From contig NW_021824154.1 of the NCBI RefSeq assembly GCF_006345805.1, positions 1 through 19,738 of the forward strand: a stretch of DNA of 19,738 nt, written 5' to 3'. Below the pieces are notes generated by a model. That model did no database searches, was not told the origin of the DNA, and saw only the letters and a program-made list of their open reading frames with translations. Positions within the stretch are counted from its first letter, which is position 1. Each line of letters starts with the position of its first letter. The position numbers were made by a program, and so were the translations under genes. The stretch is from Octopus sinensis (taxonomy: Eukaryota). Below, piece by piece: positions 1 through 19,738 of this stretch.

Positions 1-270
1 GTCCAGGGAGGCTTTGAACAAAGCGGTCGTCGGCATCTTCACCATCTCGTCTGGCAGCTTGTTCCACGGATCTGCAACCCGGACGGAGAAAGCTCCTCTC
101 CTTCGATTGAGATGAAATCGTCGCAGGTAGAGCTTTTCGGAATGACCCCGCAGCCGACGCTCTGGAGCAGGAGTTAAGAACAGCTCTTTCGAGAGGTTAC
201 ACTTTCCGCTTATGATGTTGTGGGCGAGAATGAGATCACCACGGCGGCGGCGTTTTTCAAGAGAATAACG
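1..270 (-). mobile_element. CR1-clade LINE fragment, C-terminal end of ORF2 (continues past the window edge)
   Basis: Minus-strand translation RYSLEKRRRRGDLILAHNIISGK...LRGHSEKL...RRGAFSVRVADPWNKLPDEMVK...FKASLD matches the CR1 ORF2 C-terminal pattern (SLE.RR.RGD; RGH..KL; FS.RV...WN.LP). Confidence 0.85.
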
Positions 271-288
271 TGTATGTGTATGTGTGTA

Positions 289-1057
289 GGGGTCGATGGG
301 TAAATTGTCATCGTTTTATATTTTCAATTTCGAGTATGCGCATTGTATTTTTTTTCATCTACAACACAGTATAGTAGTTCCCGTTTGGCACCGTCTGTGA
401 GAAAAACAGCACCATGACGCAATTCACACGGCCAGAAATTTGGAAACGACATGCTGTACTGCTTGTCATTCGCGCCGGAAGCTCCAATACGAACACTTCA
501 GATTTTTAGGGTTTCTTTCTGAGGACATGTATCGAGAGTGATAACAATCAAACATCCAGCCAACATCGTGGGGTTTGGAGTGATCACTAGCGATAGTGAC
601 GTTATGCCTCCATTCATCTTCGCACAAGGCCTCAGACTCAACACAGAGGTAGTGCTGCCCTGGGTCAAGGGGTTGGCTACTGGAAGACCCTGTCTGGCAA
701 CAGGATCCTGCACCACACAACACAAGCAGGAGGACCCAGTCATGGCTCTGAGATAATTTCTGCGAGCACATCGCCCGTTGTGGGGCGCAGTTGAGTGAGA
801 GACCAACAAAACTCCTTGTAACACCAAAGACGAACTGAATGCAAGGATCATAGCAGCATTCACAAACTTAAACAAATAGACCGTCCAGGAGGGCTGTAGG
901 AGATTCCGAAGTGGTCTAGACGCCGTGGTCGAAACCAATGGGGATTTTATTGAATAAATTTACTCTTTAATATTTGAAGATATTTCTCTGTAATTTTGGC
1001 AAATATATCTCTTAAAACGAGATGTCAGTGTTATTTTCCTTTTGCGTATTTGGACAT
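289..1057 (+). mobile_element. Degenerate, internally deleted Tc1/mariner transposon (maT/DD37D-like); transposase remnant about 414-957
   Basis: Starts after TA at 287-288. ATG at 414 (MTQFTRPEIWKRHAVLL), then KHPANIVGFGVITSDSDVMPPFIF, frameshifted WQQDPAPH, WGAVE*ETNKTP and terminal RFRSGLDAVVETNGDFIE* (TAA 955-957). Contains stops, frameshifts and deletions; no right TIR seen. Confidence 0.8.
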
Positions 1058-1088
1058 TGTATATATTATATAATATATATATATTATA

Positions 1089-1131
<43 letters not shown>

Positions 1132-1138
1132 ACACAGA

Positions 1139-1178
<40 letters not shown>

Positions 1179-1232
1179 CACATATGTAATATATATATAT
1201 AATATACATATATGTATGTATGTATATATATA

Positions 1233-1276
<44 letters not shown>

Positions 1277-1355
1277 ATATATATATATAATATATAATAT
1301 ATATATATTATATGTATATATATATGCGGGGTGCGGTGAATATATATATATATAC
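1058..1355. repeat. Compound (TA)n/(CA)n microsatellite
   Basis: Directly visible dinucleotide runs. Confidence 0.95.
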
Positions 1356-1643
1356 AAGACACTCACTTATACATATATTCCATATAGAGCTAGAAAGATG
1401 TACGTTTATACAAATACGCATACATAGGAGTGGACGAGTGTGTGTATGTGCGTGCGCCTATCCGTGAGTGTGTGGGTGTGTGTGTGTGTGGTGTTGATAT
1501 TCTATGGTTTTCTGCTTGAGGCCAGTATGAAGGACATCGACCTGTTTAGTGTCGGTATTTATTCTTTAAATTCTTCATCAAATAAACAATAATAAACCGC
1601 TGAAAGACGCTGGAATCATCTAGAGTGATTTTCCTTCTGGCAA

Positions 1644-1836
1644 GTGTGTGTCTGTGTGTGCGTGTGTCAGGTATTTGTATGTGTGTGTGTGTGTGTGTGT
1701 GTTTGTGTGTCTGTGTGCATGCACGCGTCTCTGCATGTGTGTATACATGTGTGTTTGTATATGTATAAATATACATGCATATACACAATACTCTACACAC
1801 ATGTATTATATATATATATATATATGAATATATATA

Positions 1837-1916
<80 letters not shown>

Positions 1917-2130
1917 ATATATATGAATATACATATATATATTAGAGAGAGAGAGACAGAGACAAAGAGAGACTCATACATAGTTACTCACATACACATT
2001 TACATAAGTATGCATGCATATTTGTGTATATACATACACACACACACACACATGTAGTTGTATATGCATATATATGTGAGTGCAATTATGTGCATGCGTG
2101 TGCTTATGTGTGTGTGCGTGCATATGTGTA
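1644..2130. repeat. Compound (TG)n/(TA)n/(GA)n/(CA)n microsatellite
   Basis: Directly visible dinucleotide runs. Confidence 0.95.
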
Positions 2131-2268
2131 TCATATTTGCCACATTCATGGAGATCATGCAAATCTCATGCAGCATTACTACATGATATGTTTTTCTATG
2201 CTACTTTCCTATATATACCGAACATATTACGTTGTGTATAGAAAGTCGAAAAGAGCCTCCCAGTTTTT

Positions 2269-2662
2269 CTGGCCGAAATGTTAGCACGCCGGGCGAAATA
2301 TTCAGCGGTATTTCGTCTGCCGCTACGTTCTGAGTTCAAATTCCGCCGAGGTCTCGATTTTGCCTTTCATCATTTCGGGGTCGATTAAATAAGTACCAGT
2401 TACGCACTGAGGTCGATATAATCGACTTATTTCTTTTTTCTGTCCTTGCTTGTCCTCTCTGTGTTTAGCCCCTTGTGGGTAGTAAAGAAATAGGTATTTT
2501 GTCTGTCTTTACGTCCTGAGTTCAAATTTACGCCGAGGTCGACTTTGCCTTTCATCCTTTCGGGGTCGATAAATTAAGTACCAGTTGCGTACTGGAATCA
2601 ATCTAATCGACTAGCCCCTTTCCCCCCAAATTTGCGGCCTTGTGCCTAGAATAGAAAAGAAT
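2269..2662 (+). mobile_element. Dimeric tRNA-derived SINE (family A): monomer 1 at 2269-2492, 5'-truncated monomer 2 at 2493-2662
   Basis: The B-box-like GAGTTCAAAT and the body GAGGTCGACTTTGCCTTTCATCCTTTCGGGGTCGATAAATTAAGTACCAGTT each occur twice (first copy slightly diverged). The same body recurs at about 6730, 11950 and 16518. Confidence 0.85.
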
Positions 2663-2677
2663 ATATATATATATATA

Positions 2678-3410
2678 TTGGGTCATCCCATAAATAATGC
2701 GGTTTTTTCAATTACATGAACAAAAGTCGGAGGGTGGCGGGATAAACTACCTACATCAACTTGCTATAAAGGCAGGTAGTAATTTTACCTTGTACTTATT
2801 CTTAGGGTAAATTCTGAAGAGTGCAGTTCGATTTTAACAGTTATTTTTCCAAAGCTATAATGGAAGTAACAAAGGAGCATATTCGGCATATTTTGCTTCA
2901 TGAGGCAACCACGCAACGGAAAGTGCAAGGTATATTAATGCAGTATATGGGAATTGGACAATAAGCATAAGCCAGTGTCAACGATGGTTCTAGAAATTCC
3001 GAGCCGGAAACTACAGGCTGGAGGATGAGCTTCGTCCTGGAAGTTCGGTAGAGCTCGACGAGGACATCCTGCAAACCCTGGTGGAACAAAATCATATCGT
3101 AACTGTTGAGGAACTTGCAGAGATACCTGGATTTGGTCATTCAACCATTCATCGACACCTGCGGGCCATCGAAAAAGTAAGCAAATTGGGTCATTGGGTT
3201 CCTAACAAACCTTCCGAGTCTAGTCGTGCACAGAGAGTGAATGTGTGCTGTTCTTTGCTGCCATGTTTCACGAATGAACCTTTTTTTGGACCGAATAGCG
3301 GCTGGTGACGAGAAATGGGTTCTCTATAAAAATGTCAAGCGCCGAAGACAGTGAGTAAGAAAAGGGAAAAAAACACCGGTACTTCAAGCTAAAGAAGGTC
3401 TTCACTCAAG
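2678..3410 (+). mobile_element. 3'-truncated mariner element; transposase pseudogene from ATG 2860
   Basis: TA then TIR-like TTGGGTCATCCCATAAATAATGCGG. Translation MEVTKEHIRHILL...QRWF*KFRAGNYRLEDELRPG...KLGHWVPNKP (WVPHEL motif)...GDEKWVLYKN (first catalytic D). Stops and frameshifts present. Confidence 0.9.
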
Positions 3411-3574
3411 TAAGGGATCTTTGGCAGGCAGGACACCCCACGCATTGAAACTTAAAGAGGTAACAAAAACAGGACATTTGATGATCATAGGACAGAGATT
3501 GGCAGAAGAAGAATTAGATATAACAGAGATGGTGTAAAACCATATGAGAAAAAGGTTTAGCGATAGTGTTCTCG

Positions 3575-3905
3575 GTGGTGGTGGTGGTGGTGATGGTGGT
3601 GGTGGTGGTGGTGGTGATGGTAGTGTTGGTAGTGGTGTTGGCGGCGGCGGGTGAGGGGGGTTGCTGGTGTTGGTAACCGTGGTGATGCTGATCGTCGTTG
3701 TTGTCATGGTCGTGGCCGTCATCGTCGCCCTTTAGTAATTACCGTTGAGGTGCACGCAGTGATGATGGTATTGAAGATTCACTGTTGATGCTGTTACTGC
3801 TATTGATGCTGTTGTTGCTGATGTCACTGTTGATGAATGCGTTGCAGTAGTAGTTGTTGTTGTTGCTGTTATTTTTGTTGTCGTAGTTCTTGTTTTTGCA
3901 GCTGA
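3575..3905. repeat. (GGT)n/(GTT)n/(GCT)n trinucleotide low-complexity tract
   Basis: Visible trinucleotide runs; they account for the poly-Pro/Thr ORF 3402-3722. Confidence 0.85.
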
Positions 3906-4012
3906 TACCATTGTGAAATAATAGCTACGATGCGTTGTTTTAAAACCATTTGAAATAAAGTGAAAAAGACGAAACCAACAACTAACTATATACGTACATC
4001 TATATTATAAGA

Positions 4013-4375
4013 TGTTACAAGGATGTTTGCAAAAGGGACATGAAGGCCTGCAACATCAATATTAGCGGTTGGGAGGCAATTGCCGGCAACCGTGGAGACT
4101 GGCGACGTACCGTAAGAGAGGGAATACACAGGAGTGACAGAGAGAGAGAGGAGAAATGGAAAGACAAGAAAAGACGTCAACAAGAAACTATGGCATTACA
4201 ACCAGCCAGGAACAGTCTTCGCTACATTTGCGGTACCTGCTAGAGGGAGTGTTTGTCCAGGATAGGACTACACAGCCACAGCAGGAAATGTATCAGGACA
4301 TGAAATGTAAAAGCCGGACTAGATTACTTTATGCGCAACTCCATTGTCTCCCGAGACAAAAAGGATGCCGACCTA
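4013..4375 (+). mobile_element. 5'-truncated RTE-clade LINE (ORF C-terminus plus 3' UTR) with 11-bp target-site duplication
   Basis: YKDVCKRDMKACNINISGWEAIAGNRGDWRRTVREG...YICGTC*RECLSRIGLHSHSRKC is the RTE terminal zinc-finger pattern. 3' stem-loop TTGTCTCCCGAGACAA. ATATTATAAGA occurs at 4002-4012 and 4376-4386. Confidence 0.88.
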
Positions 4376-4660
4376 ATATTATAAGAGACATGCTGAAAAC
4401 TGATCTCCGTCTAACTGCAGGTCACAACAAATATGTAGAAGAAGTGAAAAAAGGGGAGGAGAAAAACTTGTTGCTGTTGAGAGAGAGAGAGAGAGAGAAT
4501 TGTGTAAAAGATAGATAGATAGGTAGCGTTGCCACCATAGTAACTAACAAGGTTTGGTTACAACGCAACAAAAACTTCAAAAAATACTTTTATTATAACT
4601 CAGTCTACTTTTAGCTGGCCATCCCTGTCATTTCTCAGTCACACACACACGCATATATAT

Positions 4661-4702
<42 letters not shown>

Positions 4703-4704
4703 GT

Positions 4705-5009
4705 GGAGGCGCAATGGCCTAGTGTTTAGGGCAGTGGACTCGCGGTCGCAGGATCGCGGTTTCGATTCCCAGACCGGGCGTTGTGAGTGTTTATTGAGCG
4801 AAAACACCTAAAAGCTCCACGAGGCTCCGGCAGGGGGTGGTGATCCCTGCTGTACTCTTTCACCACTCTTTCTCCCACTCTTTCTTCTGTTGGCCTGCTC
4901 GCTTAGCCAGCGGGATGGCGTCATTCGATGGCTAAAACAATGCGAACGCATTGTGACCAGCGATGTGTAACAACATCTGATGGTCTGGTCGGTCACGTGA
5001 TCACGTGAT
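4705..5009 (+). mobile_element. Full-length tRNA-Arg-derived SINE (octopus OR-type by recollection)
   Basis: A-box TGGCCTAGTG, anticodon-arm-like GGAC-TCG-CGGTC, B-box GGTTTCGATTCC, about 230-nt body and 3' tandem (CACGTGAT)x2. Inserted in a (TA)n tract. Confidence 0.85.
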
Positions 5010-5067
5010 ATATATACATATATATATATTTATATATACGAGAAAGAAGCAACAAGAATGGATTGGT

Positions 5068-5158
5068 TTTTAGTACAATTGTTTCATACAAAGACAGGCT
5101 TTATTACAAGTTGCAAAAATTGCAGCAGATAAAAGTGTCCCGTACTCATCAGCTAAAA
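5068..5158 (-). ncRNA. Type I hammerhead ribozyme with intact core, in a ~120-bp element (about 5040-5165) embedded in (TA)n
   Basis: Minus strand reads UUUUAG-CUGAUGA-GUACGGGACA...UGUCUUUGUAU-GAAA-CAAUUG-UA-CUAAAA. It has a 6-bp stem I, exact CUGAUGA and GAAA core, long stem II, palindromic stem III ACAAUUGU and a GUA cleavage triplet. Confidence 0.85.
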
Positions 5159-5435
5159 TACAATATTTATATATATATACATATATATATATAAAATACA
5201 ATATTTATATATATATATATACATATATATATATAAATATATATATTTATTTATTTATACATACATACATAATACATATAATTTGAGTTGCGTTTATCTA
5301 TTTCTATGTGTATGTGTCAGTGTGTGTGTTTCTATATATCTTTGAACGTATCGGCAACGCAACACAGACTTTAAAACACTCTGTCGTTGTTGTTGTTGAA
5401 AGGTAAGTGCAGTGAGAGAGAAAGAGAATGTGTGT

Positions 5436-5502
<67 letters not shown>

Positions 5503-5503
5503 G
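5436..5503. repeat. (GATA)n microsatellite
   Basis: Perfect GATA run. Confidence 0.97.
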
Positions 5504-6138
5504 GATGTATTTGTCACCATAGTGACTAACAAGACTTTCACTGTATAACACTCTATATAGTACAGGCCGTACTATATGAGGTCCATTATAAATAGTTTCA
5601 ATAATAATGTCCGTATTATTGCTACCCACGGCTGACCAGATTATATAAAGCTAGATATTGTTCAATGAGTATAATTCTTCTATAGAATATAAGAAAATAA
5701 GTATTTTAAATAAATGTTAATTTTCAACATCATTCAAACTGTTATCAATCTTCACCTAGAAAGTCAATCTAAGCAGTATTTGGACAATTTATGAAGATAT
5801 ATGCACGATCAATAATTATTTTTACCGGCAGTGTAGCGACGGATACCAACCTAGTTATAATAACAATAAGGAGAATTTTCTATGCAGAATGAAACATATT
5901 TTGAAGTACAAGCGCAGTCGTTTACATCGGCCCCAGAAATAATAATGATAATCATGACAATAATAGCTATAATACTAAATAAATATTTAAAGGAAAAGGT
6001 CTCCCATAATTACGCGGATGCTAACTGGAGATAGAAGTGAATAATGAAAATGGGAAGGCAAATTATGATGGGCTATCAGATGAAGGCTTGCTATAAGAGA
6101 TAGATAAATAGATGGAGGGAAAGAATTTGAGAGAAAGA

Positions 6139-6186
6139 GAGGGAAGATGAAAGAGAGGGAAGATGAAAAAGAGGGAAGATGAAAGA
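6139..6186. repeat. 16-bp purine-rich minisatellite, 3 copies (GAGGGAAGATGAAAGA)
   Basis: Units at 6139, 6155 and 6171 with one mismatch. Confidence 0.85.
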
Positions 6187-6643
6187 GAGAGAAGGTGGGG
6201 AAAATGAAATTGCCGGCCAATTTTTTTTTGCTTTATGCTTTATCTAGGTGGGAGGTGATAGAAAAATAAAAATGGCAGAATAAAAAAAGAATAGAGAAAA
6301 TTGTATGTATGATGTTTTAATAAAGATAGCAAGCTATAGAGGGAATGAGAGCGATTGAGTGCGAAATGTTTAACGGACGCAATTTCAAGCAAATCGGGAA
6401 GAACGCAGATTTTGCAAGCAGTTATAATGGAGGAAATCAAAAGGAAAATAAAGAAATGATAACAATATAAACAATACAAACAATTTTGAAAACATAACTG
6501 AAAGTTGAAAGACGGAATTAAACGATAATTTTAAAATTTCGAATTATAGCAAAGAATATAAAATTAAATAAAGGTTATATAGTAGCATGCACAAGTCTGT
6601 ATTCAAGACTACCCGTCAATGTGTTATCTACATATATGTGTGT

Positions 6644-6875
6644 AAGACGGTGAGCTGGCAGAACCGTTAACACGCCGGGCGAAATGCGTAGCCGTATTTC
6701 GTCTGCTGTTACGTTCTGAGTTCAAATTCCGCCGAGGTCGACTTTGTCTTTCATCCTTTCGAGGTCGATAAATTAAATACCAGTTAAGCACTGGGGTCGA
6801 TGTAATCGTCTTAATCCGTTTGTCTGTCCTTTTTTGTCCACTCTACGTTTAGCCCCTTGTGGGTAGTAAAGAAAC
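6644..6875 (+). mobile_element. Full-length tRNA-derived SINE (family A monomer, tail type 1)
   Basis: A-box-like TGGCAGAACCGTTAA, B-box GAGTTCAAATTCC, shared body and tail ...GCCCCTTGTGGGTAGTAAAGAAA. Possible TSD ATATATGTGTGT at 6632-6643 and 6878-6889 (low complexity). Confidence 0.88.
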
Positions 6876-6928
6876 ATATATATGTGTGTGTATGCGTGGA
6901 GAGAGAGAGAGGGAGGGGGAGAGAGATA

Positions 6929-7565
6929 CGAGGATAGGCTGAAAAGTTCATATGCTGACTATGAAGGATTGATGCTAGAGCTGTGATATCTTACAAGTAT
7001 TAAGTTCAGCCCTTCTTATTAATAACTATATTGTTTCTTCCTAGGTAAACTGACATCTGACTGTTCAAAGAGGGCTTGAAAAATAACTGGTATCGCCTTG
7101 TCTTGTAAATCGAGAAAATTTGGCATCACATGTGTTATCAAGAACCTTCACAAAAGCGGTTTAGCTCCCAAGGACACTCACCCTTCTCTGATATGGTTGC
7201 TACGCTGGGGAATGACACTCCAACTTTATCAACTGTGCAAAAGTGGACAGCTGAATTTATAAGGTGAAGGGTGAGTCTTAAAGTTGACCCCAGATTTGGG
7301 GTTTGCGACTCGACTCCCGTCACTTAGGAAAATATTGATCGTGTTCACCACATGGTGGTGGCTGATTGACAATGAGCTATAAACTAAACAGTCAATGTTA
7401 TTAGCATATCCCATGAGAGTTGAGAATATTCTACTCAATGAACTTGGCACGACGAAGGTCTCTTCCAGTGGGTACCATGCCTTCTAACACCTGATCAAAA
7501 GCGCATGAGGCTGATCAGATAACGGGAAAATTTGATAGTTTGGGGCAGATCCAGCTGGTTCCCTC
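6929..7565 (+). mobile_element. Degenerate, 3'-truncated mariner element (irritans-like)
   Basis: TA then CGAGGATAGGCTGAAAAGTTC TIR-like start. Decayed frames read DMVATLGNDTPTLSTVQKWTAEF...ENIDRVHHMV...ENILLNELG...QWVPCLLTPDQKRMR (WVPxxL motif). Confidence 0.82.
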
Positions 7566-7605
7566 CAACCACAATTCTTCTGCGTCCATATACTATACTT
7601 TTATG

Positions 7606-7657
<52 letters not shown>

Positions 7658-7695
7658 CATATATAAAATAATATGTTACAATTACTCAATAGTCA

Positions 7696-7758
7696 AGATA
7701 AAACTCTGAGTTTCAGATGCCGAAGTGGAAATCCACAACACCATCTCTTCGGTTATCT
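7696..7758 (-). ncRNA. Type I hammerhead-like ribozyme, near-intact core
   Basis: Minus strand reads AGAUAA-CCGAAGA-GAUG...CAUC(U)-GAAA-CUCAGAG-UU-UUAUCU. 6-bp stem I, core with U4>C, quasi-palindromic stem III ACUC-A-GAGU and GUU triplet. Adjacent to a (TA)n tract. Confidence 0.65.
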
Positions 7759-8250
7759 GGCCATCTGAACAAACGCTATGAAAAATACCGTTATATAAAG
7801 GGAAATTACTGTGTTATAATTCTGCTACTTATATAAAATAAGATTAAAAGTTCATAGTAAACACGTAAACATGGCTAGTCATACGCTCACATGTGCGCTC
7901 GCGGACCCACGTGCGTACTTATAAGTCACTATGAAAACGTACACATCTTCACTCGCATTTTTTGCCAAATATATACGCATATATATACAAACTCATACAT
8001 ACACACATGCGTACCGTAAAAGTTCATACATACGTCTATATACGGACAAGCACAAGAAAAAACATGGTTAAAGGTAACAATACAGAAAAAACATAAGGAA
8101 GTATACAAAGCGTAAAAACCACGTTCATATATGGCCATGCCCTTATGCACTCATACAAACACACGCCCATAGATGTACATACCCACACATGTTTATATAC
8201 GCATACACACACACGCATATACAAAAAATGAATATACATATGCCCCGCCC

Positions 8251-8315
8251 CTCAAAATTCAGCAAAAACCCAAAGCTTATTTTTAGGCTTTGGTTTTTTG
8301 CTGAATTTTCTTGAG
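8251..8315. other. Near-perfect hairpin (26-bp stem, 4-nt loop)
   Basis: Arm 8254-8279 is the reverse complement of 8284-8309 except for one mismatch and one G-U pair. Confidence 0.85.
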
Positions 8316-8462
8316 AACACATTCTCCGTGGAAAATGACGATTTTGACGTCTATATCTAGCATACAGGCTGTCCACTTTTAGTGGTCATTCCTCTAAATT
8401 TTGTATATATAAATATATACATATATAAAAGATATTATATATAAATATATATACATATATAT

Positions 8463-8503
<41 letters not shown>

Positions 8504-8621
8504 GTATATATGCATGTGTATACATTTGTGTGTGTATTAATATATATTCTGATTGAATGCTCCGTGTGTTAACATGTACCTCCTTATGACAATGTAAACT
8601 TCATTTAATGAAGATACCCTT

Positions 8622-8705
8622 GGCCTGAAGTGTAGCCTACGGTATACACCTCGCTTGGGTATTTACTACTTTCAAGGTCCCGGTAGCTATGAAACATATG
8701 TAGCC
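8622..8705 (+). ncRNA. Type I hammerhead-like ribozyme upstream of the Penelope-like ORF
   Basis: GGC-CUGAAGU-GUAGC...GCUAU-GAAA-CAUAUG-UA-GCC. 3-bp stem I, core with A9>U, 59-nt stem II domain, palindromic stem III ACAUAUGU and GUA triplet. Confidence 0.7.
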
Positions 8706-9119
8706 CGGATTTCATCTACTCCATTCCTTAACCCTTGGATTTTTATTCGCATATCTGACAATCCTGGCTGCCTACCGTGAAATATAAAGTAATTTTTTTC
8801 AGCTTATCATACACCGATACGAAAAAATCCACAACTCTACGTCCCAATAAACCACTATTGTCTCTGGAAGTTGTTTTATATATTTTCTACGGATTGATTG
8901 AAACACCTTCTCACACCTTGCTCCTTCGACCTTATATTTATATATATAAAGCACACAATATACATAGTTTTAATATATTTTTAAAAAATTATTTTATAAG
9001 TGAAAGAGTATTGTGTTTGTCGACCGATTTCACTTTCACTAATCATGACATTGAATTTATTGTAATTTCGTATTTTCTTAAGAAGATTTTCGTCCATGTT
9101 CTTTGTGGTGAAGTTCCAA

Positions 9120-10630
9120 AAACATCTCGACACAGATATAAGTATGCATGCTAGGAAAACCCTACTTTTCAACTAGAATTCAACCTGGGTCAAACGAACT
9201 GACACTGAAGGCTCATTCGACGTTGCTGATATTTGCGACCTTATAGGGTTTTACATTCTGGACACTCTAGGTAATAAATTCCCCTCTGTCCACTTTGGCT
9301 TATATAGAGATGATGCATTAGCCATACTTTAGTTAGGCTTAGAAAAGACATCCTACACACCATACACGACCTCGCCCTTAAACTCACCATTGAAACTAAT
9401 CTCACCGTGGTGAGATGCCACGCTTCTTGGATGCCACGCTTGATCTAGATAGTGGTACCTATAGACCATACCGTAAACCGAATGATAGGCTATCGTACAT
9501 TAATACAGCCTCCTGCCATCCACCCATAATCTTAAAACATCTAATAAACATTATCAGTAAACAGATTTCGATCTTATCTTCAAATAAAGATATTTTCGAC
9601 GCAGCGGCTCCCGCTTACAATGAGGCGTTAGCGGCCAGCGGGTTCAAAGAGAATACAGTATATGTACCAAAGAAGGAAACGCCACCGCAATACCTTATGG
9701 TTAGCTTCCCGCTTCTCCCTAAACGTCCGGAAATGCATAGGTAAGATTTTTCTTAGGTTGGTTGATAAGCATTTCACACGATCACACAAATAGAGAAAGA
9801 TCTTTAACAGGCATAATTTAAGAATCTCTTTCAGTTGTGCACGTAATATCAAGGACAAATTACTTAGCACTCCTAAGCCACGGACAGAGGCAGATTTTAC
9901 ATGCAGGATTAGCAATGAATGCCCAGTGGACGGCCGATCTAACACCGAGGCTACAGTATACCAAGCAAAAGTAGCCTCAAACGGAAGCAGCACAAATATC
10001 AATAACATCGATGCCAAAATAGGGACACAAACTAAAATTTATGTTGGATCTTGTGAATCCAGATTTAAAGTTCGCCTGAACAACCACAGATCTTCTTTCA
10101 GAGTCCCGGAAAGACGCAACACAACAACACTTACAGCATACGTATGACGCCTAAAGGACGATCATACGCCCTTTAACATCAGGCGGAAATTATTGGAAAC
10201 TTGTGGACCCTATTGTAATGGAACAAGCCTGTGTAAATTGTATTTGGCAGAAAGATTTATAATCCTCATGAGCTCACATGAGCCAGGGGGGGGCTATCTT
10301 AACTCCAGCACGGAAGCCGTGGGGAATTGTCCACATTTTCGGAAATTTTTACTTCAAAATTGTAAAAACCTAGCTAAGAAGCGAAGGAAGACAACTTGCC
10401 CAGCCATATTTTTAAAGAGGATTATTTCTTGAACTATCACCGGCGTCTTTCTATTTTAAAACACACATTCTTTGCAGAGAACGGTTATCGTTTAAAGGAA
10501 CTGAAAAGTTCACGCTTGATGTGAAACCAATGGTTTTTTTATCTAAACTTACGCTAGACATACACAAATAAAATAACTGCACAATATTTTATAGGGTATG
10601 CTCTTCTCCTGATTTATGATATTGTAACGA
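9120..10630 (+). mobile_element. Penelope-like retroelement pseudogene: RT (YRDD) plus C-terminal GIY-YIG endonuclease, 5'-truncated
   Basis: HARKTLLFN*NSTWVKR...ICDLIGFYIL...GLYRDDAL (about 9297-9320); FLDATLDL..GTYRPYRKPN..LSYIN..SCHPP; CPVDG...VYQAKV...IYVGSCESRFKVRLNNHRSSF; CKLYLAERFII...LNSSTEAVGNCPH. Multiple stops and frameshifts. Confidence 0.9.
10497..10539 (+). ncRNA. Decayed hammerhead-like motif in the 3' region of the Penelope-like element
   Basis: GGAA-CUGAAAA-(15 nt)-GAAA-CCAAUGG-UU-UUUU. Core G8>A, quasi-palindromic stem III ACCA-A-UGGU, weak stems I and II. Confidence 0.4.
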
Positions 10631-11012
<382 letters not shown>

Positions 11013-11018
11013 GACAGC

Positions 11019-11138
11019 ACAGTTTCCGCCTACCAAATTCTCTCAAAGCACTGCTCGGCTTGGAGTTTTAATAGAAGATACTTGTTCCAGTTGCCGCGCA
11101 AACCACATCGTTGAAAAATGAGCGTATTGACTGCACGA
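11019..11138 (-). mobile_element. Degenerate SINE fragment, probably CORE-type
   Basis: Minus strand CAACTGGAACAAGTATCTTCTATT...TTTGGTAGGCGGAAACTG resembles the CORE motif ACCTTGGGCAAGTGTCTTC. Family assignment is from recollection. Confidence 0.5.
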
Positions 11139-11709
11139 GTGGCGGGGGGATATCACTTGTAAGATACTTGCGTCCTCCTACCGGGTGGAAGATGGGGCCA
11201 GATGTTTCCTTTTTCGTTGCGGCTCATCTAGAAACTTAGTCGACGCTAAGCAGATCTCTTTAAGTAAATCCTTCAAGGCTTTCTTTATTTCTTTTCCTTT
11301 TGTCGCAAAAAGGAAACGATCCACATGCAGTTAAGAGTAGTTGCGCAGCCGAAGCGTAATCAGTATGAAAGTATAAGGTTAACACAGCATCAAGGGACAA
11401 AATAGAAAAAGATCGGATTATGGATAATTAAGATGTGCCGCAAAGGAAATTATAGGATATATATAATCCAATGAATTATAGGATTATCATAATATAAAGG
11501 AATCCGAGAAAGGACAGGATTACTATTGGTTCCTTACACACAAATCCTAAACTATTTACAAGTGAGTTAGAAATTCGATACTTTCCTTAGGGGCACTTGT
11601 TACGCGAGTATAATTCAGGGGAAATGCAATTTATAAACAGGAATCGAAAATGAATAGCGATGCACTCGTTCGTTGAGATTATGCAGCCACAAATATGGCT
11701 CTCAAAAAA

Positions 11710-11741
11710 ATAATAATGTATTTATAATAATAATGATAATC

Positions 11742-11793
<52 letters not shown>

Positions 11794-11829
11794 TAATAAT
11801 AATAATAATTATTATTATTATTATTATTA

Positions 11830-11885
<56 letters not shown>
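11710..11885. repeat. (TAA)n switching to (TTA)n: self-complementary microsatellite
   Basis: Polarity switch at about 11808. Confidence 0.95.
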
Positions 11886-12072
11886 GCGACGAGCTGGAAG
11901 AATCATTAGCACGCTGGACGTCGCTGCGTTCTGAGTTCAAATTCCGCCGAGGTCGACTTTGCCTTTCATCCTTTCAGGCTCGATAAATTAAGTACCAGTT
12001 GAACACTGGGGTCGATGTCATCGACTGTCCGCCTCCCCAAAATTCCAGGCCGTAGGCCTATAGTGCAAAGGA
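11886..12072 (+). mobile_element. Family A SINE with deleted head segment, tail type 2
   Basis: GAGCTGGAAGAATCATTAGCACG, GAGTTCAAATTCCGCCGAGGTCGACTTTGCCTTTCATCC and tail CCCCAAAATTCCAGGCCGTAGGCCTATAG. Confidence 0.85.
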
Positions 12073-12132
12073 TTTTTGATCCAATCAACGGCCCTTATGA
12101 GCCCCATGGCTCGAGAAGGAACAAGCAAAAAC

Positions 12133-12311
12133 AAATTCCATGCCTGTATCTTTGCCGAAGAGTCGTACAATCTGTGTTAAGGAATCTTTCTTTCATTCTT
12201 ACTAAAAAGCTTCAGACCATCCATGTAGAGCAAATGGTTAATTTTTCCTTTCCTATTTCTACACTGATACTCCCACTTTGCTTTCCTCAATACTAAACTG
12301 AGTGGGATCAA
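12133..12311 (-). mobile_element. R4/Dong-clade non-LTR retrotransposon RT fragment
   Basis: Minus-strand translation LIPLSLVLRKAKWEYQCRNRKGKINHLLYMDGLKLFSKNER, then after a frameshift SLTQIVRLFGKDTGMEF. This matches the R4/Dong pattern HLLYMDDLKL...F..DIGMEF, with the catalytic DD mutated to DG. Confidence 0.78.
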
Positions 12312-12768
12312 ACATAATAATAATTATAATTATTATTATTATATTGTCTTTGCACAGCTTCTACTGCTGCAGATGTACTACGGTGTCAGTGAAAATAAAA
12401 GACTAAAGTAGTAAATGAAATAACGGGGCTGGGAGATACGGTGAGAGAGAGAAGAGAGAAAGAGCGAAGTGGGATAGACGTTGAAAAACAAGGGCAAGGA
12501 TACGAGTGACAGAGAAAAAGTTCCAAGGATATAATAATTGAATGACTAATAAGAAAAAGACTAAAGAGAGAGAGAGAGAAAAAGGCACAGACGGGCACAC
12601 AGGCAAAGAGACAGGCAAGGTAGCTAGTGTTATAAGGAAATGACAACAGTAAAAGGATACAAATGAAAGGCGTAAAGAAAAGTACCTCACAGTGAAATCA
12701 AATTTGTTTTCTGATTACCATGTAGTTGGAAAGTTTCAATAAGAAGCTAGAAACCATATTTTAGATAA

Positions 12769-12813
<45 letters not shown>

Positions 12814-12814
12814 A

Positions 12815-12849
<35 letters not shown>

Positions 12850-12858
12850 CTTATATAA

Positions 12859-12938
12859 AATATGTAAATCTTACTAGAAAAAAAAACGAATTATTAAAGC
12901 CTACACGGTCTAGCAAATTCTTATGAATTTCATTTCTA

Positions 12939-12974
<36 letters not shown>

Positions 12975-13079
12975 ATATATATGTATGTATGTATGTATGA
13001 GTGCGTGTATGGGTGTGTGCTTGCGTGTCTATATACATACATACACACACACACACAACACACACACGCACACATACAT

Positions 13080-13138
<59 letters not shown>

Positions 13139-13415
13139 TTATTTTTACGTATTTTTGAATTCTTATTCGTTCCCGTCCTTGTTTTGTATATATACATTCG
13201 AGGCTTTCTTCCAAGGAATCTAATGCGCTTGGCTTAGATTTTCCTTTGGGGCTGGCCAGGTCGGAGCAATCTCAAGATTAATCAGCCGAAATTGCGAGCA
13301 TGATCCGGTTCTGACTGAAGATTGAAGGCTTCGAATGTCTCGTCCGTGTTTTTTGTATCTTCTTGTAAATGTTTTGCGTTCTTGTCCCAGTTTGTATTTT
13401 TTTACATTACATACA

Positions 13416-13458
<43 letters not shown>

Positions 13459-13547
13459 GTGTGTGTGTGGTGTGGTGGTGTGGTGTGTGTGTGTTGTGCG
13501 TGTATGTATGTATATAGACACACAAGCACACCCATACACGCACTCAT

Positions 13548-13591
<44 letters not shown>

Positions 13592-13672
13592 TAGAAATGA
13601 AATTCATAAGAATTTTCTAAACCGTGTAGGCTTTAATAATTGCGGTTTTTTTTCTTGTACGATTTACATATT
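12859..13672. repeat. Large inverted repeat: arms about 12859-13135 and 13410-13672 around a ~275-bp core
   Basis: Unique AATATGTAAATC...GAATTTCATTTCTAATACAT and GAGTGCGTGTATGGGTGTG...GTCTATATACATAC blocks recur in reverse complement, in mirrored order with the intervening microsatellites. Confidence 0.92.
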
Positions 13673-14224
13673 CGAGACCAATTAATAAGCAGCTTCATTT
13701 ATTTTAGTATAGATTATCTTTTCTCAGTTTTCAATTACCCTGTAATTTCGTACAGTGGAGCAAACGTGCGTTCAAGAGTGTTTGAGTATTTATGAACATC
13801 CTACTTTACCCTAGGTAACAGTCTTTCCATGATAATTTTATTTAATATAGGTTTTTTTATTATTATTTCACCTTGTCTTGCTTATATTTTTTGTTTATGT
13901 ACTTTTTTACCCAAAAGTAAATCCTCCACAATTTTTGCAGCTCATCTTTGTTATGTCTCGAATTTGTCACACTTGCAGGAAGTAAAAACAAAATTAATAC
14001 AATTAATACCTCTGTTGCTGTTTGTTGTTGTTGTTGTTGTTTGTGTACTTATTATTATAGAGATGAAATGATTTTCTCACTCTTTTCACTTCTGTACGAT
14101 TGATGTACACAAAGGTGAAGCAAAAACAACCGGAAATCGAACCCTTTGTTCGGTGTCTGCCTAAGGCGAAGGTTATAATTACTAGGATAATTGAATATTG
14201 CTATCCTTTTGCCATAATCAGAAA

Positions 14225-14265
14225 TCATAATAATAATAGTTATCATCATCATCATCATCATCATC

Positions 14266-14334
<69 letters not shown>

Positions 14335-14401
14335 CATTATTATTATTATTATCATTATTATTATCATTATCATTATTATTTTTATTATCATTATTATAAT
14401 G

Positions 14402-14433
<32 letters not shown>

Positions 14434-14711
14434 TATTATTATTATTATTATTTATTATTATTACCATTATTATTATTATTATTATTATATTATTATTATT
14501 ATTATTTTACCATTATTATTATTATTATTATTACTATTAAATTATTATTATTATCATCATTATTATTATTATTATCATTTATTTTTTATTATTTTTATTA
14601 TCATTATTATAATAATAATAATTATTATTATTATTATTATTGTTATTATTATTATTATTACTATCATTATTTCTATTATTATTATTATTATTACTATTAT
14701 CATTATTATTA

Positions 14712-14773
<62 letters not shown>
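14225..14773. repeat. Long (TTA)n/(TCA)n tract with embedded (TAA)n segments
   Basis: Directly visible. Confidence 0.95.
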
Positions 14774-15322
14774 GAGTGAGAGAGCAGTGCATGCCATCAA
14801 AGTGACACTGGGGTAATATATACGAAGCCCAGTATACCCATCATGACTACCCGTCTGATAAGAGTACACCAGGCACATGCATCACAGCCATATGTGCGTG
14901 ACATGGTGATCTCATATCAAGATAAACAGCGCATGACCTCGCAGGTGGGGACCTGTTAGAATTTTCTTCTGGTCGAATAGTCAATCCCGCTCAAAAGGTC
15001 CCTAAATAAGGGCTGTTTAAGGATGTTGAACGAAACACCCACGTTTCCAGAGGTGAATTATTCAAACCCCAAAGAATCCCTCTCAACACATGGTTATGAT
15101 GCTCCCCCACTAATTCTGTTCGTGAACAGAGATGCACATATCGTCAGCCACTAAGGGACATGCTCAACTGGTTAAGCTCAAACAACTGACAAGCTAATCT
15201 GTGGTATTGAGCAGAATATTTGCTGTAGTCCATCTTTTATACCAAGATAAAACAATGTACATGATAACACTTCCAATCAGTTAAGATCAGAAGCCATGAG
15301 AGACTCTGCCTGGTACTACATG
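14774..15322 (-). mobile_element. Probable non-coding retroposon body ending in a (TAA)n tail
   Basis: A 550-bp complex block with no credible ORF; the minus strand ends ...GCACTGCTCTCTCACTCAATAATAAT. Its status as a repeat is from recollection of cephalopod sequence and is not provable within the window. Confidence 0.5.
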
Positions 15323-15427
15323 AGGCAAAGTCGACCTCAGCGGAATTTGAACTCAGAACGTAAAGACGGGCGAATGCCACTAAGCATTTCTCCCAGCGAG
15401 CTAACGATTCTGCCAGCTTGCTGCCTT
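15323..15427 (-). mobile_element. Family A SINE 5' part (left arm of inverted pair)
   Basis: Reverse complement of AAGGCAGCAAGCTGGCAGAATCGTTAGC...GAGTTCAAATTCCGCTGAGGTCGACTTTGCCT. Confidence 0.88.
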
Positions 15428-15471
15428 ATTATTATTATTATTAAAAATAATAATAATAATAATAATAATAA

Positions 15472-15511
<40 letters not shown>

Positions 15512-15531
15512 TAATAATAATAATAATAATA

Positions 15532-15564
<33 letters not shown>

Positions 15565-15669
15565 AAGGCAGCAAGCTGGCAGAATCGTTAGCACGATGGC
15601 AGAAATGCTTAGTGGCATTCGCTTGTCTTTACGTTCTGAGTTCAAATTCCGCTGAGGTCGACTTTGCCT
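15565..15669 (+). mobile_element. Family A SINE 5' part (right arm of inverted pair)
   Basis: A-box-like TGGCAGAATCGTTAG and B-box GAGTTCAAATTCC; truncated after GTCGACTTTGCCT. Confidence 0.88.
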
Positions 15670-16517
15670 TTATAGCGGTGTTAAACTACCTTGAGCTCTC
15701 TCTTAGGTTATATTATTATAGTATATCTCTATTTAGTTTTGTTGCAGTAATGTAATGCTATTTATTGTTTTCTATTGGGAAATAGATTATTTTATTTGGC
15801 TTTTTTGAGTAAGGGTGAATATAATGATTAAAACGTCACTTATAACTTAAGTGTTATCATTATACACAAATCCGAACTACAGTGTATAACGAATGGAGAA
15901 ATATACTTATGGAACGCTATAAATATTAACGACATGTATGTATAATATTTTCTTCGTGTTCATTTAACCGCTATAAGAAAATATAATTTAATGACTACAG
16001 AAATGCATATTTATTTATACTCAGTTGAAAAACAAACGTGAAGAGAAACATTTTCTTAATTAGTTTTATTATATAAATATAACATTTTATATTATGTACA
16101 TGTGAAAGGAAAGATAATTTTCGTCGTGTAGAAGTACGACTATATATTCACTAGCTAATTCATAAATCTAACTAATAGATTAATCAACAATTCAAAATAG
16201 ACTTGTGATTTTCTTTGAACATGGCATGAAAATCACCAATGTCTCAAAGGAGTGAATATTGTGGAGTTCAGTTACTTCCAACAAACACTAAAGTTTTCCC
16301 CCAAAATCCAGGGTTTTTATAACTGCTCAACGTGACTTAAAAGAATCGAAATCCATTACAAATATTCTTTACGTAACTTTTTAGAATCTTTATATGAGCA
16401 GTTATATTAAACCAATGGAAAAAAACGAAAATAATAATTCTTCGGCAATACGACATTATGTCATATTGCCAATTCGCGCTTTATTTCAAAAATTGGTTAA
16501 AATGGCTAATTGCTACA

Positions 16518-16595
16518 CCTTCATCCTTTCGGGTTCGATAAATTGAGATCGATGTAATTGACGATTTTCTTACCCCATATTTTTAGGCCTTGTGC
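16518..16595 (+). mobile_element. Family A SINE internal/3' fragment
   Basis: CCTTCATCCTTTCGGGTTCGATAAATT...GGCCTTGTGC matches the body and type-2 tail. Confidence 0.7.
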
Positions 16596-17460
16596 TTTCT
16601 ATTATTATTATTATTTATTTATTTATTTATTTATTTGTTCATTTATGTATTTATTTTTACTCAGCTTTTGTTGGGACTCCCGGAAACTTGCATACGTAGC
16701 GGGATTGCTAATTTCAGCCCACGGTACATGCTATCTATTCTTTTCGACTAATGTTTTCTTGATTATTATTATTGTTATCAGTAGTAGTAGTAGTAGTAAT
16801 TGTGGTGGTGGTGATGATGAGGTGGAGGAGAATGGGAAGCGGGAGGGTCATTGCGGAGTGTGTAAAGCTATGTTTAAAATTCGCTCCCAGTTTTACCAAA
16901 TATAATAGCATAAGGATAACCTATAAAGCAGGAGTCAGTCCTGATTTGGTTAGACTTGAATCTCCAAAATACTAGCAGGCACAATATGTGTACAAATGGT
17001 CCTAATACCATGAAACGAGATTCTTAAGTATGCTTAGGTATGGATTAATTAATTTTGAGATGATCAACTTGTGTAAATCACTAATTTAATTAGACTTTAA
17101 GATCCAGTAATGAGTTACATAGACAATTATTCCTTAGACACAAGTGATACTTAAATGAAAACTTAAGTAAAAAAACGGGTATGGAAACACAAATTAAGAA
17201 GTTTTACTTAGACACGTAATTAGGAATTAATTAGACTTTCTGCTCCAGCGTCAATTACTTCGTAGAAATGTTCACTAAACCCAAGCGAATCTATTCATGT
17301 CACTTAAGAACCATTTTAGGTACGGATTTCTAATTTAAGAAGCATTTTCTCCTAATCACTATACACTAATTAAGAAGAAACATGCAGAAACACTGTTTTC
17401 AAGCTACGTGAGGAATGCAACATACAAACGTGTCTTAGACCCAAAACGTGTTTTGACAGA

Positions 17461-17527
17461 GTTTTCTATCTTGAGATCTGGGCCAACCCAGATTCCTAGC
17501 AACTTAATCGGGCCTTCCATCCATTTT
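17461..17527 (-). mobile_element. Probable L1/Tx1-clade LINE ORF2 fragment
   Basis: Minus-strand translation KWMEGPIKLLGIWVGPDLKIEN resembles the post-RT K.LG motif of Tx1-like elements. Confidence 0.5.
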
Positions 17528-17671
17528 ATTTACAGAACTTCATCATTATGCAGCATCCACAGGAACCAGCTTGTACGAGAGGTTTTTGTCTTTAAGGGTA
17601 TCATTATACGTCTGGTTGGAAGTCCAACAGCACGAGTTCTTTTAGAAGGCTTAGCGAAAGGGAAAGGCTCA

Positions 17672-17726
17672 TTTCTTTATTAGCCGCAAGGACCCAAAAT
17701 AGAGGGGGACAAACAATGACAGACAA
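17672..17726 (-). mobile_element. Isolated family A SINE type-1 tail
   Basis: Reverse complement TTGTCTGTCATTGTTTGTCCCCCTCT...CCTTGCGGCTAATAAAGAAA matches the tails at 2440-2490 and 6820-6874. Confidence 0.7.
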
Positions 17727-17808
17727 CACAAAATGTTGGGGTACATAAAATGTATAATGAAAATGTATGTGACAATAAAATCGAATGAAAAGAAATGCAA
17801 TGGCTTAC

Positions 17809-17880
17809 GAGCCCTTCCAAAGCTCGCAGTTCCATTTTACTGTTCATATAATGTTTGATACAAACTTGAAAGCAGTGTTG
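17809..17880 (-). CDS. Candidate 72-nt internal host exon (QHCFQVCIKHYMNSKMELRALEGL if phase 0)
   Basis: Acceptor TATTCTTTCTTTCTCCAG, donor GTAAGC, length divisible by 3, only one frame open, non-repetitive context. Protein not recognised. Confidence 0.35.
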
Positions 17881-18259
17881 CTGGAGAAAGAAAGAATAGG
17901 TAGATTGGTAGAGTTATTCCCCGACAAAAGTGAAGGATTGCTGCGATGTGTGTGAATCTGAGACGGGACTATGTTGAATAAAATCATAATTTATCCTCCT
18001 GTATATTTTTTAACCAAAGCCAGTATGATTTCAGCACCCCTTCGTATAATACCTTATGAATTTTAGAAACAGTCCTTGAAGATATCGTTCCAGTATTCTA
18101 TACTCAGCGACGAACACCACTGAGAAAAATATTCAATGGCTTTTATATCGACGTGATTTTCAATGTGATATCAATGTGATTTTCTTTCCATCAGAACCAT
18201 AACAATACTAAGAGGGCGATGAAACATAAACAGAAAGAAACATGTACATATTACAAGTT

Positions 18260-18537
18260 TCACACTCCCTTTCTCTCTTTCTCTCACTTTGTGTGTGTCT
18301 CTTTCTTTCTTTTTCTCTCTGTCTCTGTCTCTCTCTGTCTCTCTCTTTCTCTGTTTCTCCCTTTCTCACGTACACTCTCTCTTCTCTCCATTTCAATCAT
18401 TCACTCATATTCTTCATGTCACCATTTCTCCATATTTCAGTTTTTCTCACTCTCTCTCTCCCTTCTCCCTCTCCCTTCTCTCTCTCTCTATATATATATA
18501 TATACACACCCACACACATATATAGACACACACACAT

Positions 18538-18578
<41 letters not shown>

Positions 18579-18652
18579 GTGCTTTCTCTTGCCTAGAAAT
18601 CGCCGTAGTCTCACAATCCCTCATTCACTACACTAACTTACACATTCTCTGC

Positions 18653-18698
<46 letters not shown>

Positions 18699-18722
18699 GA
18701 CCACCACTATTACTACTACTAT
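18260..18722. repeat. (CT)n pyrimidine tract, (TA)/(CA)n and (CTA)n microsatellites
   Basis: Directly visible. Confidence 0.9.
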
Positions 18723-18900
18723 GACCACTAATACATTCATATATACATATATAAGCAAACACACATATGTATATACGTATAATATATGAGTATATTTATC
18801 CTATGCGTATATACCTGAATATATACCCCATATAAAAATATAAGTACACCCTATATGTAACTACTTTTATACACAACTCTCTATAAATACTCATACCCAA

Positions 18901-18917
18901 TAGATATATATATATAT

Positions 18918-18985
<68 letters not shown>

Positions 18986-18997
18986 ATGTAGATATAG

Positions 18998-19035
<38 letters not shown>

Positions 19036-19139
19036 TATATATACCAGTTCGCGTGTCTGTGTGTATATACATGTGTGTGTACGTATATATGTATATACAT
19101 ATACTTGTATGCGCACACACACACATATATATATATACA

Positions 19140-19194
<55 letters not shown>

Positions 19195-19280
19195 CTGTGC
19201 GCGTGTCTATTTACATGTGGTATATATATGTGTGTGTGCGTGTGTGTGTACGCGTGTATATGTATATATATGTATATACA

Positions 19281-19325
<45 letters not shown>

Positions 19326-19400
19326 ATATGTATTATATATATATATAGTAAATATATATATATATATATTATATATATATATTGCATGTATGCATGTACG
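18901..19400. repeat. (GATA)n/(TA)n/(TG)n compound microsatellite
   Basis: Directly visible. Confidence 0.95.
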
Positions 19401-19629
19401 TGCGTATGTATCCTATCTGTTTTAGCCATAACCACATTCCACTCCAGATCTTTTGATGTTTGCCAATTCTCGCTAATTTCACTCTCAACATACTTTCATC
19501 ACATTTACTGCTTCACCCTTGTTATTGTTTAACGTCGTTGTTCTCGTGGTTGTTGCTGGTATTGTATTTGTTGGGTTTTTTCTCCTCTTTATTAGTTTTT
19601 GTTGTTACTATTGATATTACGGTTGTTGT

Positions 19630-19673
<44 letters not shown>

Positions 19674-19738
19674 ACTACTACTACTACTACTACTACTACT
19701 AATATTATTATCATTATTACCATTATTATTATTATTAT
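19630..19738. repeat. (ACT)n then (TTA)n microsatellite
   Basis: Directly visible. Confidence 0.95.

Follow-up and report, generated by a model that had tools for sequence, protein, structure and literature searches.

Analysis of a 19,738-nucleotide (nt) stretch of the Octopus sinensis genome (contig NW_021824154.1, positions 1 to 19,738; hereafter the window) shows that it holds four type I hammerhead ribozyme (HHR) motifs, each with a palindromic stem III. We consider it very probable that each of these motifs is the terminal-repeat HHR of a separate autonomous Penelope-like element (PLE) family, left behind as a 5'-truncated insertion beside TA microsatellites; this assessment is a joint one that takes in the assignment of the families to the Hydra clade, a mechanism for their insertion and an elongated stem II, all treated below. 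The cluster as such is explained by known biology. Whereas the arrangement of the four motifs is already known, the part that appears to be new is the long stem II, present in ~14,000 motifs by pattern searches and likely overlooked by standard ones.

Motif 1 (core to cleavage triplet 5152-5074, minus strand) combines the canonical core CUGAUGA, the only one among the four, with a 60-nt stem II insert, the stem III ACAAUUGU and a 6-bp stem I, and is predicted to be cleaved after the GUA at 5074. Motif 2 (7752-7702, minus strand) displays a U4C core (CCGAAGA), an additional U before G12, a 31-nt stem II insert and the stem III ACUCAGAGU. Motif 3 (8625-8702, plus strand) has a 59-nt insert, the stem III ACAUAUGU and an A9U change in the window copy, and motif 4 (10501-10535, plus strand) is a decayed version with a 15-nt insert and the stem III ACCAAUGGU. 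Three stems with an open stem I, as in type I HHRs, are present, except in the window copy of motif 4, which, compared with the rest of its family, lacks ~8 nt of core and stem II sequence and has a stem II without a fold. Comparison with the families of these motifs (F1-F4, in the order of the motifs; see below) shows that motifs 3 and 4 are damaged copies, the commonest form in both families being intact: the A9U change is found in only 2/39 F3 copies, as against CUGAAGA in 20/39. The U4C of motif 2 recurs in 36/43 F2 copies and is a natural variant with lowered activity (as described in PMC3088659). Many of the divergent relatives listed retain U4, whereas the variant has come close to fixation in the young F2 family; the ribozyme of an active family may here be a weakened one.

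To gauge significance, we used a type I descriptor with a fully palindromic stem III, composed after the motifs had been seen. It matched the window once with an exact core, three times with one core mismatch and four times with stem II relaxed to 2 bp, as against shuffle means of 0, 0.03 and 0.07, respectively, with a maximum of one match (60 block-wise dinucleotide shuffles each); the genome-wide controls presented below are the stronger test. None of the 121 matches at E<=1 in an Rfam scan of the window, all of them microsatellite-driven, was to a hammerhead family, which reflects a limit of the Rfam models and not of the HHR class. An earlier note on this DNA, made from its letters alone, had described four type I motifs with a self-complementary stem III, each within about 100 bp of a (TA)n tract and two of them sharing a ~60-nt stem II and the form GUA...UAU-GAAA-CANNUG-UA. 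Both positions and palindromes hold up, their frequency lies well above that in dinucleotide-shuffled sequence, and the shared form is indeed common to motifs 1 and 3 (inserts of 60 and 59 nt). The nearest (TA)4 lies 9, 42, 74 and 93 nt from motifs 1-4; however, as 30% of the window is within 100 nt of a tract of this type, the family-level (TA)n test is the stronger one. We regard the four as genuine hammerhead motifs, and the cleavage sites given for their families are predicted ones.

The parent elements of the motifs were sought within the same genome (2.72 Gb), with 1111, 2029, 2615 and 260 first-look candidates emerging for F1-F4; in each family, 40 of them were scored and 30 retrieved. 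The F1 piece in the window (5039-5162, minus strand) consists of the last 124 nt at the 3' end of a young, Hydra-like PLE and is flanked by two (TA)n tracts, one of which (5008-5038) adjoins its 3' end; 38 of the 44 listed matches to it are 100% identical. A locus with the same 3' end (L121) displays an inverted 608-nt 3' copy followed by a reverse transcriptase (RT), an Asn-rich linker, a GIY-YIG endonuclease (EN), a 1.6-kb 3' untranslated region (UTR) and the HHR in sense, such that this element exceeds 4.2 kb even though it is 5'-truncated. The 5' ends of F1 form a continuum from 124 to 897 nt (39 segments at 27 loci), with the window copy being the shortest, and both orientations are present at 12/27 loci. 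Contigs from four sequencing runs presumed to be of RNA also contain F1, with no callable ends, and carry no weight here as evidence. The 3' UTR of F1 in L121 also holds two to three 102-nt tandem repeats that are ~84% alike (5396-5601) and a 300-nt pyrimidine tract (near 4970-5260). In the window, there are about three copies of a 38-nt unit to which the first bases at the F1 5' junction belong (5154-5271), and the F1 insertion was received by the (TA)n end of another high-copy repeat (4700-5007), which we take to be related to short interspersed nuclear elements (SINEs).

The F2 piece (7666-8250, minus strand) represents a second PLE family with ~585 nt of its 3' UTR and terminus, the 3' end abutting a (TA)n tract (7602-7665). 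An EN remnant is present upstream in sense at 8/29 loci, both RT and EN are seen at two extended loci (L125 and L126), and duplicated blocks occur in two loci. Immediately upstream of the F2 5' junction is a 50-nt hairpin (8258-8308) with only a weak match to a microRNA model. The F3 piece (8546-8948, plus strand), with a (TA)n tract (8404-8511) upstream of its 5' junction, is the ~400-nt 3' end of a third, older PLE family and includes a tail (8741-8948). An EN lies 0.7-1.1 kb upstream; with this EN as query, the F3 end was found downstream at 17/30 loci, the RT upstream at 7/30 and both at 4/30 (within 1.5-kb flanks), where RT, EN and HHR region follow in this order on one strand. The F4 piece (9134-10632, plus strand) is a 5'-truncated, frame-broken Hydra PLE with the C-terminal part of the RT, a linker, the GIY-YIG EN, 3' UTR, HHR and a tail (10571-10632), its 3' end running into a (TA)n tract (10633-10930). 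The RT and GIY-YIG domains were recognized by tblastn among the families and by their motifs; Pfam searches with six open reading frame (ORF) pieces of the window gave no RT or GIY-YIG match at E<=0.1. All four families display the organization of EN-containing PLEs, i.e., an RT, a C-terminal GIY-YIG domain and an HHR in sense at the 3' end. We found no blastn similarity among the four window pieces, and the within-family identities differ (99-100% in F1, 97-99% in F2, 81-85% in F3 and 76-86% in F4); these lacking similarities and differing ages indicate that the pieces are independent insertions. Two further readings were rejected: motif 3 is not the 5' pseudo-long terminal repeat (pLTR) of the PLE at 9134, there being no similarity between the pieces, and F2 and F3 are not fixed-length elements of 590 and 400 nt, their apparent 5' ends being the truncation points of the window copies themselves.

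The association with (TA)n is borne out at the level of the families. A (TA)4 is found within 15 nt of 25/40 F1, 16/40 F2, 10/40 F3 and 21/31 F4 matches (background 6.7%), and within 130 nt of 39/40, 38/40, 20/40 and 24/31, respectively (background 21.8%). The 3' end of each family comes in two versions: the short version stops 35-38 nt beyond the predicted cleavage site, and the longer version carries a tail of ~120 (F1), 70 (F2), 210 (F3) or 60 (F4) nt. The copies further bear the 5' truncations, inverted 5' copies and optional tails of PLE insertions; truncation, inversion and tails are features described for PLEs in PMC8557442.

The Hydra clade of PLEs, as defined in PMC8557442, is distinguished by a CxCX5C linker and by CxxC and CxH signatures around a conserved E and N of the EN, replacing CCHH; almost all of its families prefer (TA)n, and their HHRs are printed there with a palindromic stem III. 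We found the CxCX5C linker in F1 (L180), F2 (L125, L126) and F4 (L132, L133), and in a degenerate form in the single F3 copy read, whereas the CxxC..E and CxH signatures are present in F1-F4 and in a further large, young, long-stem family (family A). F1-F4 also share with that clade the order of RT and GIY-YIG, insertion at (TA)n and, close to the 3' end, a type I HHR whose stem III is palindromic. The RWK and DKT motifs concern N-termini, which the retrieved F1-F4 loci lack; DKT is present in family A (L178, L192). The stem III of motif 2, ACUCAGAGU, is that of Penelope-3_HM in PMC8557442. The HHR row of Hydra-1_Obim in the same source is identical to the sequence formed by the most frequent letter at each position of the F4 alignment, and on visual comparison window 10310-10632 also matches the 3' UTR and first 50 nt of that element; F4 thus appears, by this comparison, to be the same family as the published one. 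Together, these features indicate that F1-F4 likely all belong to the Hydra clade; membership in the Neptune clade was dropped once the Hydra definition was compared. F1 and family A depart from the Hydra elements of PMC8557442 in their long low-complexity linkers and 3' UTRs and their length of >3 kb, and family A further lacks the cysteine linker. Both 3' ends of family A nevertheless lie at fixed distances from (TA)n, which bears on the published idea that this linker directs (TA)n targeting.

We then determined the abundance of the long stem II, counting exact-core matches genome-wide. The pattern CTGANGAG, 42-71 nt, GAAACANNTGTH has 14,190 matches versus 29 for its reversal, and the same pattern with a 6-41-nt spacer has 491 (control 28). 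Motif 2 belongs to the 7-nt stem III class, for which a looser pattern has 4,110 matches (control 183), and the GUA...UAU form seen in the window has 886 (control 0). The total over four patterns (the long-spacer ones with T and with non-T before GAAA, the short-spacer one and the looser one) is ~18,800 matches against 240 in reversed controls, which alter dinucleotide content, while the patterns cover part of the HHR forms. The long stem II is dominant within the ACANNUGU stem III class and among the forms counted, and the expectation of the earlier note that the genome could hold very many ribozymes has thus proved correct. A G-U closing pair as the genome-wide norm was rejected, with 3,359 of the 14,190 long-spacer matches having a T before GAAA versus 10,831 having a non-T base, which is nearly always C among the 100 matches listed. 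There are also small families of short-stem HHRs with the ACANNUGU stem III, including one tandem pair 1.18 kb apart (G000:C3:117122 and 118306).

The retrieved loci yielded 92 distinct long inserts in 27 clusters, 46-72 nt in length and widely variable in sequence. At least 4 closing pairs are present in 20/27 clusters (mean 5.1 versus 1.6 in shuffles), and a stem I of at least 3 bp is also found in 20/27, as opposed to 12% of cross-family pairs. In the largest related group, with 20 members, double changes occur at 7/12 basal pairs and 88% of the cells are paired, compared with 36-50% in slid controls. An unrooted tree of 13 single RT pieces from this genome (4 shorter ones dropped) separates the short-stem F2 and F4 from the long-stem F1, F3 and family A at 100/100, which agrees with a single origin of the long form, short of proof. 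Among other long-stem families, an ORF remnant of their own is found at 4/20 and 4/20 loci in two samples, supporting autonomy for a minority of those sampled; at two further loci of the second sample the ORF matches belong to neighbouring elements.

Published searches and structures place stem II in a much shorter range. Known PLE HHRs are reported with a stem II of 4-8 bp (PMC4209133, PMC8557442), the Hydra HHRs in File S2 of PMC8557442 have a stem II region of at most ~26 nt as opposed to 55-60 nt in F1, F3 and family A, and the "long helix II" of viral HHRs in PMC13725137 denotes 6-8 bp. The 2014 descriptor permits a stem II of at most 7 bp plus a 10-nt loop (PMC4209133), and the long class therefore falls outside it, in keeping with the earlier note's remark that these stems far exceed those of minimal PLE hammerheads. 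The 2021 core search used 7-17 nt, with cases of 35-50 nt in Naiads noted as half cores (PMC8557442), and the part of PMC13282606 available to us makes no mention of hammerheads or ribozymes. In our literature search, no paper describing a long-stem-II class for animal PLEs came up; the search covered papers rather than Repbase and Dfam, and Luense et al. or Arkhipova et al. 2017 may already list such forms.

These observations can be accommodated by the following mechanism. The GIY-YIG endonuclease of the element would nick (TA)n, and the RT would have two alternative internal start points for copying, both downstream of the ribozyme: one lies 35-38 nt beyond the predicted cleavage site, and another, which would yield the tail, 60-210 nt further on. 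Copying would mostly end early or fold back, giving rise to short and inverted copies. With the ribozyme adjoining the RT start point, nearly every insertion would carry an HHR, which would account for their high density. The ribozymes themselves would cut only as dimers via the palindromic stem III, a mode reviewed in PMC6765202, or with the help of the element's protein. In a Poseidon PLE, internal RT starts produce the tail and protein-assisted HHR cleavage has been shown (PMC11167929); we infer by analogy that both extend to F1-F4. Finally, one sub-lineage (F1, F3 and the larger family A) would have lengthened stem II to a helix with interruptions, 43-72 nt in length and maintained by compensatory changes.

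Several points weigh against this interpretation. The family loci are the best-scoring 30 of 260-2615 candidates and are hence biased to close copies, and no intact full-length ORF is present among the retrieved F1-F4 loci. The link of F3 to (TA)n is weaker, with 14/40 matches having no (TA)4 within 400 nt. The clade placement rests on motifs and the by-eye match rather than a tree including reference sequences; F1 exceeds the <3 kb that Hydra elements generally measure, a purely descriptive trait, the published F4 relative being 2.5 kb; and none of the 3/3 family A copies read (L178, L192, L195) has a cysteine linker before the GIY-YIG domain. As for the long stem, the folding z falls below -2 in only 12/27 clusters (median -1.7), and the long inserts of the window fold no better than shuffles (z of -1.55 and +0.45). 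Covariation in the distal hairpin is seen in 1/6 pairs; all covariation counts come from a single related group, whose structure was named from its own alignment, and relatedness inflates them.

Outside the window, we identified a young non-autonomous hammerhead unit, R1 (L201:866-3234; G000:C1, about 22,011,165-22,013,530), comprising tandem, ORF-less 535-nt units with one long-stem-II type I HHR each, as in retrozymes. Its HHR, with GUC as the predicted cleavage site, has 839 exact copies genome-wide (control 0); the longest stop-free stretches of the unit are 48 codons in sense and 87 in antisense, and it is self-paired with a folding z of -7.7. The best-scoring units are 95-100% identical and form head-to-tail arrays at many dispersed sites, one of them ~17 unit lengths long. 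Inverted segments are found at 15/22 sites, and most of the 3' ends that are visible continue into (TA)n. PLE-like tblastn matches occur at 4/30 loci, all outside the arrays, and the search for a partner turned up only an older relative (L166) and short matches in the HHR region, but nothing matching F1-F4. By its structure, R1 is a non-LTR (long terminal repeat) retrozyme with PLE insertion marks. Like the animal non-LTR retrozymes of PMC7229834 and 10.64898/2026.07.22.740005, it consists of units that are arrayed in tandem, lack an ORF, contain a single type I HHR and are strongly self-paired; it differs from them in its long stem II and in being longer than the reported 170-400 nt. Retrozymes have been proposed in these sources to depend on PLEs, and the sequence features of R1 support this proposal: its inversions and (TA)n ends are direct marks of PLE insertion, which do not figure in the descriptions accessible from either source. 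R1 also resembles non-autonomous Chlamys elements such as MRC1 (PMC8557442), which are PLE dependants with multicopy head-to-tail insertions, although these are from green algae, belong to a different PLE clade and lack a canonical HHR.

The existence of R1 bears on an alternative reading of the window, in which the motifs at 5068-8705 are short non-autonomous elements (retrozymes or SINE-like) mobilized in trans by a PLE such as that at 9134-10632. The window copies lack an ORF and have (TA)n at their boundaries, most copies of their families are short, and the genome does harbour a genuinely non-autonomous HHR family, with PLE dependence having been proposed for retrozymes at large (PMC7229834; 10.64898/2026.07.22.740005). 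Yet each family runs on into its own RT and EN, the 5' ends of F1 are continuous, no regular head-to-tail arrays of the R1 type are seen in F1-F4, save for the duplicated blocks in two F2 loci, and the pieces show no similarity to F4. We therefore regard this reading as largely refuted and very unlikely. The four window motifs, linked to RT/EN ORFs and not arranged in short tandem units, are unlike R1 and are not retrozymes. Thus, the inference of the earlier note that several HHR-bearing families with PLE machinery target (TA)n was sound, and its short HHR elements mobilized by PLEs have a counterpart in R1; however, the window motifs each continue into their own RT and GIY-YIG ORF, and the three upstream ones are not parts of the PLE at 9134-10632, there being no blastn match among the four pieces. 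These four are pLTR motifs with no independent mobilization, the outcome that the note had set against its own proposal, and one of the families is already published. The proximity of four motifs in 5.6 kb, compared to about one exact-core match per 145 kb, could alternatively signify a functional unit, in which neighbouring HHRs cooperate or regulate a host transcript. We give this hardly any credence: the motifs lie on opposite strands, differ in age, include two damaged cores and have differing palindromes unable to pair with each other, while insertions collect in stretches rich in (TA)n, and the window itself was chosen for its content.

A more serious rival concerns the long stem alone and is compatible with the rest of our explanation: stem II might be neutral, i.e., an AT-rich hairpin expansion in one ancestral element, with only the basal pairs mattering, that spread by the success of its lineage. 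The wide variation in length (46-72 nt) and sequence among the 27 clusters, with their median folding z of -1.7, and the location of the long-stem families on one side of a single branch of the RT tree are what this predicts, and another PLE was able to insert in vitro without HHR cleavage (PMC11167929). On the other hand, the double changes keep pairing up to pair 12, beyond the 4-8 bp of known PLE HHRs, and shortened forms are rare (491 versus 14,190), several of those listed resembling deletion copies of long ones. We place neutrality just short of an even chance. A bolder and rather improbable idea is that a Hydra sub-lineage made stem II a 50-70-nt docking arm for its own RT-endonuclease, serving as a protein-gated switch and RT start marker; this form would dominate the genome with >14,000 intact cores, escape standard descriptors and have been captured by the 535-nt retrozyme, which would use the arm for insertion by the Hydra enzyme.

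In most other respects, the insertions described here conform to known systems. The main finding of PMC4209133 is of PLE hammerheads that are dense, diverse and for the most part solitary, and the window motifs resemble those minimal hammerheads in being of type I, in pLTRs, with a palindromic stem III, and in occurring as thousands of copies, single or inverted, that derive from truncated PLEs, with many sequence families per genome. Unlike them, F1 and F3 close stem II with G-U, and the long-class motifs listed here mostly have G10.1 right after A9, without the extra nucleotide of the consensus in that source. The spike-moss PLE-X1 HHRs (File S2, PMC8557442), marked there as deviating from the canonical structure, have a loop 2 of 29-35 nt and so offer a precedent for a long stem II region; however, they represent two EN-minus, ribosomal DNA-targeted plant families that are not abundant and lack this palindromic form of stem III. 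The ~18,800 matches in this genome are a high number but no record, being below the 126,247 HHRs of the axolotl (PMC7229834); ~9,000 are given for Xenopus (PMC4209133).

The rest of the window is likewise rich in repeats. Two inverted copies of a common repeat (15323-15469 and 15523-15669), presumably SINE-like, surround (ATT)n/(AAT)n and are 91% complementary over 147 nt, with related pieces at 6638-6889 and 11919-12074. A decayed mariner-like transposon remnant with weak helix-turn-helix matches lies at 2994-3308, and a second stretch, at about 6925-7590, we assume from its terminus to be another such remnant. The stretches at 12939-13136 and 13409-13620 represent a local duplication of a microsatellite-flanked segment, with matching ORF translations and repeats.

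The major class of this genome would escape any ribozyme census in which the length of stem II is limited, so HHR counts in genomes of this kind may be underestimates. The function of PLE hammerheads and the mobilization of animal retrozymes are questions that this genome can serve: young, near-identical autonomous long-stem families beside a young retrozyme with PLE marks constitute a ready pair for in vitro tests. Should the docking-arm idea be true, they would provide a direct natural test pair for the mobilization of animal retrozymes by PLE machinery.

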